A stretch of DNA of 64,000 nucleotides from Escherichia coli 042 (GTDB lineage: Bacteria > Pseudomonadota > Gammaproteobacteria > Enterobacterales > Enterobacteriaceae): the NCBI RefSeq assembly GCF_000027125.1, contig NC_017626.1; one strand, 5' to 3'. Position numbers and translations under genes: made by a program. How positions within the stretch are numbered: the stretch's first letter is position 1; the number at the start of each line of letters is the position of its first letter. The notes beneath the pieces are model-generated. The model was not told where the DNA came from. It saw only the letters and a program-made list of their open reading frames with translations, and did not search any database. Of the stretch, positions 2,565-4,260 are shown in pieces.

Positions 2565-2589
2565 CAACGCGTACCCAGGGTACGCGTTG
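2565..2589. other. Perfect palindrome (12-bp arms around a 1-nt centre) in the pyrG-eno spacer; probable RNA hairpin or processing site
   Basis: caacgcgtaccc-a-gggtacgcgttg read directly. Confidence 0.4.

Positions 2590-2607: not shown

Positions 2608-4260
<1,653 letters not shown>

Follow-up and report, generated by a model that had tools for sequence, protein, structure and literature searches.

The hp1 structure of ompA and the leader of T7 gene 10 are stem-loops that stabilise a message from its 5' terminus. The hairpin between rpsO and pnp is an RNase III site that adjoins a terminator; the pnp leader helix is longer than the pyrG-eno stem described here, and autoregulation by PNPase is established. 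To our knowledge, nothing like PNPase autoregulation is known for enolase. Between the co-transcribed genes rplL and rpoB lies a leaky terminator or attenuator, which also has an RNase III site. Lastly, adhE and eno are named together as paradigm targets of RNase G (PMC4681348, PMC4191395), and the processing of adhE is credited, in the passages of these two papers that deal with it, to Aristarkhov et al. (1996) and to Jourdan and McDowall (2008).

The pyrG-eno hairpin resembles the adhE leader in having a helix with rnc-dependent cuts, followed by RNase G cleavage to an 18-nt leader (as cited in passages of PMC4681348 and PMC4191395). However, in adhE the structure blocks the ribosome-binding site of that same message, whereas the pyrG-eno stem is located between two cistrons, approximately 30 nt upstream of the Shine-Dalgarno sequence, and comprises only 13 bp of perfect helix plus an outer helix of approximately 5 bp. 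Like the rpsO-pnp element, in which RNase III cuts both arms and the downstream message then decays (according to a passage of PMC4681348), it is an intercistronic stem-loop, but a staggered pair of cuts does not emerge from the pyrG-eno fold. With ompA hp1 and the T7 gene 10 leader, this locus would share a stable hairpin at the 5' terminus, followed by an AU-rich leader of approximately 40 nt and a strong Shine-Dalgarno sequence on a very highly expressed gene, and the published eno 5' end at -77 (±1-2 nt) coincides with the base of the helix. In contrast to those two leaders, the eno 5' end arises from processing rather than from transcription initiation, and protection there is putative. 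The likeness to rplL-rpoB consists of a GC-rich stem and a U-containing tail within an operon, and the Vibrionaceae and Aeromonadaceae versions of the pyrG-eno element look canonical in this respect; in E. coli, however, the tail is interrupted (UUUGUCU), several stem-bearing families have no U-tract, and it is the downstream gene, eno, that has the more abundant product.

Both the hairpin of E. coli and the surrounding nuclease cuts have already been published. Enolase is among the most abundant proteins of E. coli and is a component of the RNA degradosome; how its message comes to be uncoupled from that of pyrG, which is of low abundance, is a real if small question for operon biology. Our addition is modest: formal covariation evidence for selection of the stem as sense-strand RNA, conservation of the hairpin's position in Enterobacterales, Vibrionales and Aeromonadales, an eno leader that is conserved to an unusual degree, and the confinement of a helix of RNase III length to two families (Enterobacteriaceae and Yersiniaceae). 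These findings could justify a curated RNA family; they alter no concept.

The palindrome and its RNA fold in E. coli

The features of the locus are listed in Table 1. As the original prediction held, a perfect palindrome, CAACGCGTACCC-A-GGGTACGCGTTG, can be read directly off the plus strand at exactly 2565-2589, and the two genes around it are co-oriented, with the palindrome inside the spacer that separates them. Its central base, A on the plus strand, is T (U in the RNA) on the transcribed minus strand. Counted from the eno ATG, the palindrome spans -45 to -69. In MG1655, it corresponds to 2907986-2908010 and the spacer to 2907942-2908028, and the annotation of that genome has no feature in the pyrG-eno spacer.

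Table 1. Features of the pyrG-eno locus, with positions numbered in the 64-kb window (the whole stretch of DNA analysed)
Feature	Position	Strand	Remarks
Perfect palindrome, 25 nt	2565-2589	minus	arms 2565-2576 and 2578-2589, centre 2577
pyrG (CTP synthase) CDS, upstream gene	2608-4245	minus	
eno (enolase) CDS, downstream gene	1222-2520	minus	
pyrG-eno intercistronic spacer, 87 nt	2521-2607	minus	the eno 5' UTR of PMC6872547
Main RNA stem-loop, GGCAACGCGUACC-CUG-GGUACGCGUUGUU	2563-2591	minus	folds, energy, covariation
Extended hairpin, including outer helix UUAGA (2594-2598)/UCUGG (2556-2560)	2556-2598	minus	folds
AU-rich eno leader 3' of the hairpin	2521-2561	minus	Shine-Dalgarno GAGG at 2529-2532
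Published 5' end -77 ('enoP6')	2597	minus	base of the outer helix; position ±1-2 nt
Published 5' end -27	2547	minus	within the eno leader
Published 5' end -18	2538	minus	within the eno leader

A palindrome of such size anywhere in the window is only mildly unusual (approximately 5%): among 40 dinucleotide shuffles of the full 64 kb, two contained a 12-bp arm. The window has only five perfect inverted repeats whose arms reach 10 or more and whose loops do not exceed 8. By simple counting, the same palindrome would be expected by chance inside one given 87-nt spacer with a frequency of approximately 5e-5.

The stable hairpin that had been predicted is borne out by the fold of the spacer RNA, with a minimum free energy (MFE) of -27.9 kcal/mol (z = -3.07; 0 of 200 shuffles fold equally well), and by strong covariation in the stem (see below). 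The 12+1+12 symmetry of the palindrome is not the shape of this RNA, because a 1-nt loop is sterically impossible. The main stem has 13 pairs, of which 11 are Watson-Crick and two are basal G.U, with a 3-nt CUG loop and an energy of approximately -19.5 kcal/mol; it starts 16 nt past the pyrG stop codon and is present in every suboptimal fold within 1.4 kcal/mol. An outer helix of 4-5 bp (UUAGA/UCUGG), with pair probabilities of 0.5-0.6 in the partition function, is joined to the main stem via a 2x2 internal loop, for a total of approximately 18-20 bp.

A 351-nt probe over the site matched 5425 of 5426 complete E. coli genomes at 95% identity or more, and the element is present as a single copy per genome in 5425 of the 5426, a search with 11-nt words included. 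Matches to the arms within the 64-kb window are at chance level. The 43-mer around the element is identical in 3417 genomes, and 2002 genomes fall into the class with a one-base difference. All three genomes sampled from this class have A changed to G at -73 (2593), in the 2x2 internal loop, and the palindrome is unchanged in the sampled genomes that differ only at this position. Strain E1739, which is more divergent, has G at -73 plus an ACC insertion in the 5' arm. The loci carrying the sampled E. coli variants include L082 and L084. In a river isolate, 8 nt (TAAGTAAA) are duplicated right after the pyrG stop codon.

Conservation of the stem and of the eno leader

A genome scan with the enolase N-terminus gave 80 loci from Enterobacterales, Vibrionales and Aeromonadales. 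pyrG is immediately upstream of eno in all 80, with a gap that is usually 62-94 nt, and nearly every spacer contains one dominant GC-rich hairpin soon after the pyrG stop. The sequence of the stem varies by genus: it is CAACGCGUACC in E. coli, CAAUGCACCC in Citrobacter, CAACGCCCC in Pseudocitrobacter, GGGGCGGC in Yersinia, GGGCAGCAGC in Vibrio and AUAGCUGUAGC in Photobacterium. Judged from the aligned spacers, it is pairing rather than sequence that is conserved across Enterobacterales.

In a MAFFT alignment of 31 Enterobacterales (A1), for which 10 stem pairs were scored, 99% of stem cells hold standard pairs, and slid controls are 27-53% paired. Both sides have changed in 7 of the 10 pairs; compensatory cells number 60 vs 16.6 in column shuffles, and none of 500 shuffles reaches 60. 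A chance origin is rejected on this comparative evidence, namely the 99% pairing and the compensatory changes among the 31 Enterobacterales. A covariance model built from A1 has a single match in the 64-kb window, and it matches upstream of eno in every Enterobacterales locus. The model-fitted alignment of 56 distinct sequences derived from it, which leans towards the structure, is 96.7% paired with compensatory changes in 10 of 10 pairs. On the sense strand, G.U occupies 57 cells vs 3 for A.C. Because G.U so far exceeds A.C, the object of selection is the sense mRNA and not duplex DNA or an antisense transcript.

The energy of the best hairpin was compared with 100 dinucleotide shuffles per spacer (p ≤ 0.05) for the 70 short spacers, and 66 of these beat their shuffles; the exceptions are one Aeromonas and three Morganellaceae. 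All spacers from Enterobacteriaceae, Erwiniaceae, Hafniaceae, Yersiniaceae and Vibrionaceae pass, as do 8 of 9 from Aeromonadaceae and 8 of 11 from Morganellaceae. An equivalent strong hairpin is located at the same position in Vibrionaceae and Aeromonadaceae. Helix length differs among families: a helix of at least 20 bp, which is approximately two turns and long enough for RNase III, is found in 11 of the 21 Enterobacteriaceae and in four of the five Yersiniaceae (extended helices of 20-26 bp), and helices elsewhere are 8-19 bp, with medians of 11-19 (approximately 11 in Erwiniaceae, Morganellaceae and Vibrionaceae). Rfam gives no match in the spacer at E ≤ 1, and none at the gathering score in 14 related loci.

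The hairpin is 38-43 nt from the eno ATG in four Enterobacterales families and in Vibrionaceae, 46-50 nt in Aeromonas, and 29-32 nt in Morganellaceae (except for one outlier and two Xenorhabdus with long spacers). The distance from the pyrG stop to the hairpin varies, being mostly 6-18 nt; it is 3-16 nt in Vibrionaceae and Aeromonadaceae, with 7-9 in most Vibrionaceae and 12 in most Aeromonas. Between families, the eno leader is 85% identical vs 65% for third codon positions of eno, and its consensus, GUCUGGAGUUUUAGUUUAACUUGUACUGAGGAAAACCUA, is near-invariant from Citrobacter to Yersinia, Serratia and Edwardsiella (at about 1160-1200 in L001-L080). The near-constant spacing to the ATG and the conserved leader indicate that the hairpin is tied to the eno leader, not to the pyrG stop. 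The leader sequence is an outlier in E. coli and E. albertii (UUUCAG; ACUAGUGACUUGAGG). The motif GUUUAACUU presumably resembles the 'epsilon' translational enhancer of T7 gene 10.

Loop length and loop sequence vary freely, with insertions of 90-180 nt in the loops of some lineages. Ten loci have long spacers of 105-254 nt (L007, 1031-1200; L008, 1008-1200; L012, 1014-1200; L014, 1027-1200; and L027, L028, L037, L038, L049 and L053). In at least six of the ten (L007, L008, L012, L014, L049 and L053), the extra DNA folds inside the hairpin loop, and the basal helix is retained around such inserts (e.g. GGCAACGCG...CGCGUUGUU in Siccibacter). The inserts fold into a long hairpin of their own and have no Rfam match; that of Erwinia endophytica recalls what we take to be an ERIC repeat. 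In Erwinia and Mixta (L016, L023, L052 and L059; 1118-1203), AGUAUUUUC follows the pyrG stop and is predicted to pair with the Shine-Dalgarno region, GGAAAAACU. This predicted Erwiniaceae helix, which encloses the hairpin and might sequester the ribosome-binding site, is absent from E. coli.

Published ends and processing of the pyrG-eno messenger

According to published work on E. coli, transcription that reaches eno is initiated a long way upstream, from the promoter of pyrG and from eno promoters located within that gene. PMC2759082 places eno promoters P1-P3 and P7 within pyrG, lists the older eno promoters at -731, -760 and -903 inside this gene, and maps eno 5' ends at -27, -77 and -212 that were interpreted as promoters; a 105-bp fragment conferred chloramphenicol resistance in a fusion. 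In PMC6872547, primer extension and S1 mapping identified bands in the 87-nt UTR that are RNase III-dependent, and one of them, band 3, builds up in a strain without RNase G. Two of the rnc-dependent bands are equated there with the -27 and -77 ends, and 'enoP6' is reinterpreted as a processing site. In the E. coli literature, the ends that flank the hairpin, -77 on one side and -27 on the other, are reported as RNase III-dependent and 5'-monophosphorylated. We reject the promoter reading of these two ends: our scan detected nothing promoter-like in the spacer, and PMC6872547 reports both as rnc-dependent. Two sigma-70-like sites are present in pyrG at 3466-3534 on the minus strand (TTGAAA-18-TATATT, 10/12, and CTGAAA-17-TAAAAT), near, not at, the published internal eno promoters.

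PMC6872547 also describes a 'large hairpin upstream of the Shine-Dalgarno', removal of which by RNase III was proposed to improve translation. Given a UTR of 87 nt, this would have to be the 2565-2589 stem. The text of that paper calls sites 1 and 3 canonical RNase III sites in its M-fold drawing; purified RNase III cut a model hairpin elsewhere than in vivo, a cis-antisense RNA was invoked, and antisense cDNA ends were found at -36 and -83, either side of the palindrome. Because of this mismatch between the cuts in vitro and in vivo (PMC6872547), a direct part of the hairpin in the rnc-dependent cuts is only putative. PMC4191395 reports that RNase E has a site between pyrG and eno and that RNase G cleavage shortens the eno leader to 18 nt. 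Neither of two RNase III target maps has an entry for the site: PMC5371410 names eno only as an RNase G target, and PMC6212723 makes no mention of it. We found no spacer coordinates in the supplement of PMC4681348 (in either genome version), no pyrG or eno entry in the supplements of PMC12207403, nothing about eno in PMC9239193, PMC8848933 or PMC10503654, and no mutational test of the stem in the literature.

The three published 5' ends bracket the extended hairpin (Table 1). In the fold, U-77 pairs with G-37 (P = 0.53) as the first pair of the outer helix, and -27 is in a separate small hairpin. An assignment of -77 and -27 as a 2-nt staggered RNase III pair fails in the MFE, suboptimal and partition-function folds alike. 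Both flanking ends are preceded by AG and followed by UU (AAG↓UUAGA and CAG↓UUUAAC). The consensus for RNase E and RNase G is RN↓WUU, and by these motifs the -27 and -77 ends appear to resemble RNase E/G sites more than an RNase III stagger.

We consider it fairly likely that the hairpin is an intercistronic element of mRNA processing and stability, acting post-transcriptionally on the pyrG-eno messenger. The suggestion that it is a processing signal gains support from the covariation and from the published RNase III, RNase G and RNase E ends around it. The hairpin would serve as a landmark that positions cuts, splitting the eno message from the pyrG segment and from long untranslated leaders. 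[quoted passage not shown] A cut at -27 would instead remove the hairpin and expose an accessible leader, more translatable and RNase G-sensitive, in which RNase G would then cut at -18; RNase E would also cut the spacer. The ratio of the -77 to the -27 species would tune enolase output independently of pyrG.

Since only Enterobacteriaceae and Yersiniaceae have helices of at least 20 bp, the role inherited by all these bacteria is probably to provide a stable structural barrier or cap rather than an RNase III site as such. A bolder proposal, which we regard as improbable, is that the hairpin insulates the enolase message and is ancient, being common to at least three gammaproteobacterial orders; it would operate as a structural roadblock and not as an RNase III site. 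If this were true, it would block 5'-end-dependent scanning or decay by RNase E/G from entering eno from the pyrG segment and would cap the processed eno mRNA, which would explain expression of eno far above that of the co-transcribed pyrG. On the same proposal, the hairpin with its U-tract in Vibrionaceae and Aeromonadaceae could additionally act as a terminator that is switched off by the ribosome finishing pyrG.

Termination and other readings of the hairpin

The hairpin might alternatively be a leaky intrinsic terminator or attenuator at the end of pyrG, with partial release at the UUUGUCU tail and the remaining transcripts reading into eno, but we think this unlikely. The GC-rich stem (13 bp with a CUG loop, approximately -19.5 kcal/mol) is of the kind expected for an intrinsic terminator, and in the tail UUUGUCUG a count that begins at the last Watson-Crick pair gives 5 U in 8, a borderline value under the scan's rule; however, the E. 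coli tail (UUUGUCUGG) is interrupted, the count falls to 3 U in 8 after the G.U-extended stem, and the consensus scan makes no call there. The same scan calls the Photobacterium and Vibrio equivalents terminator-like, but makes no call for Aeromonas caviae or for Proteus, whose stem of 12 bp has no U-tract. The hairpin is followed by U7 in 7 of 9 Aeromonas (by UUUCCUUAA in the other two), and the U count is 5-7 in 8 in Aeromonadaceae and likewise in 12 of 16 Vibrionaceae (range 2-6); in contrast, it is 1-4 in Morganellaceae, 2 in Hafniaceae, 2-3 in Erwiniaceae and 1-2 in Budviciaceae, all of which keep the hairpin. With an interrupted tail, no scan call and a U-tract unconserved across families, the partial termination offered in the original prediction is weak for E. 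coli. Its effect would also run the wrong way: because the known eno promoters (except for the disputed -27 and -77) are inside pyrG, upstream of the hairpin, all eno transcripts have to pass it, and termination there would depress eno in comparison with pyrG, although eno has the higher expression of the two. In the Term-seq tables of PMC7815308, the interval 2907942-2908028 has no listed 3' end, which is weak evidence, as the eno terminator is missing there too; of the transcript ends anticipated near the palindrome, the published ones are the 5' ends at -77, -27 and -18.

Those tables bear in the same way on the proposal that the hairpin is a barrier to 3'-to-5' exonucleases, since a stable 3' end is not among their entries. 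Such a role is compatible with the processing and stability reading, and it draws on the stability of the hairpin (-19.5 kcal/mol), on its location soon after the pyrG stop across nearly all 80 loci and on the endonuclease cuts known directly 3' of it. Nevertheless, constant spacing is kept to the eno ATG (38-43 nt) and not to the pyrG stop (6-18 nt), and a cut at -77 would take the hairpin off pyrG, and we give this proposal a low probability. Very improbable is a palindrome that works at the DNA level, by binding a protein dimer or by forming a cruciform, or, in a variant, as a hairpin in an antisense transcript. Its two-fold symmetry is perfect in E. coli and the antisense cDNA ends at -36 and -83 flank it (PMC6872547), but pairing is conserved and sequence is not, as it would be for a protein site; a G.U in the sense RNA is an A.C mismatch in the antisense RNA or DNA, for which the count is 57 vs 3 against; and the loop is free to vary in length and sequence, with the 90-180-nt insertions described above. 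A DNA protein site or cruciform is rejected on the unconserved sequence and the G.U asymmetry. The probability that the palindrome is a dispersed repeat (REP/BIME or ERIC) or a product of chance verges on nil: although 12-bp arms turn up in approximately 5% of shuffled 64-kb windows, the site is single-copy in 5425 of 5426 genomes, its arms match elsewhere at chance level, the covariance model has one match in the window, and the stem covaries across genera. REP/BIME and other dispersed palindromic repeats are ruled out by the finding of one site per genome.

The window contains a further palindrome 20 nt past the eno stop, at 1173-1202, which is one of its five perfect inverted repeats. It has 13-bp arms, AAAAATGCCAGCC-CGAA-GGCTGGCATTTTT, with A-runs and T-runs on both sides. 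The terminator scan does not list it; its letters suggest an intrinsic terminator that works in both directions, located between eno and ygcG, which converge. Sub-threshold Rfam matches to STnc370 and STnc430 are located at 1166-1264 on the minus strand.
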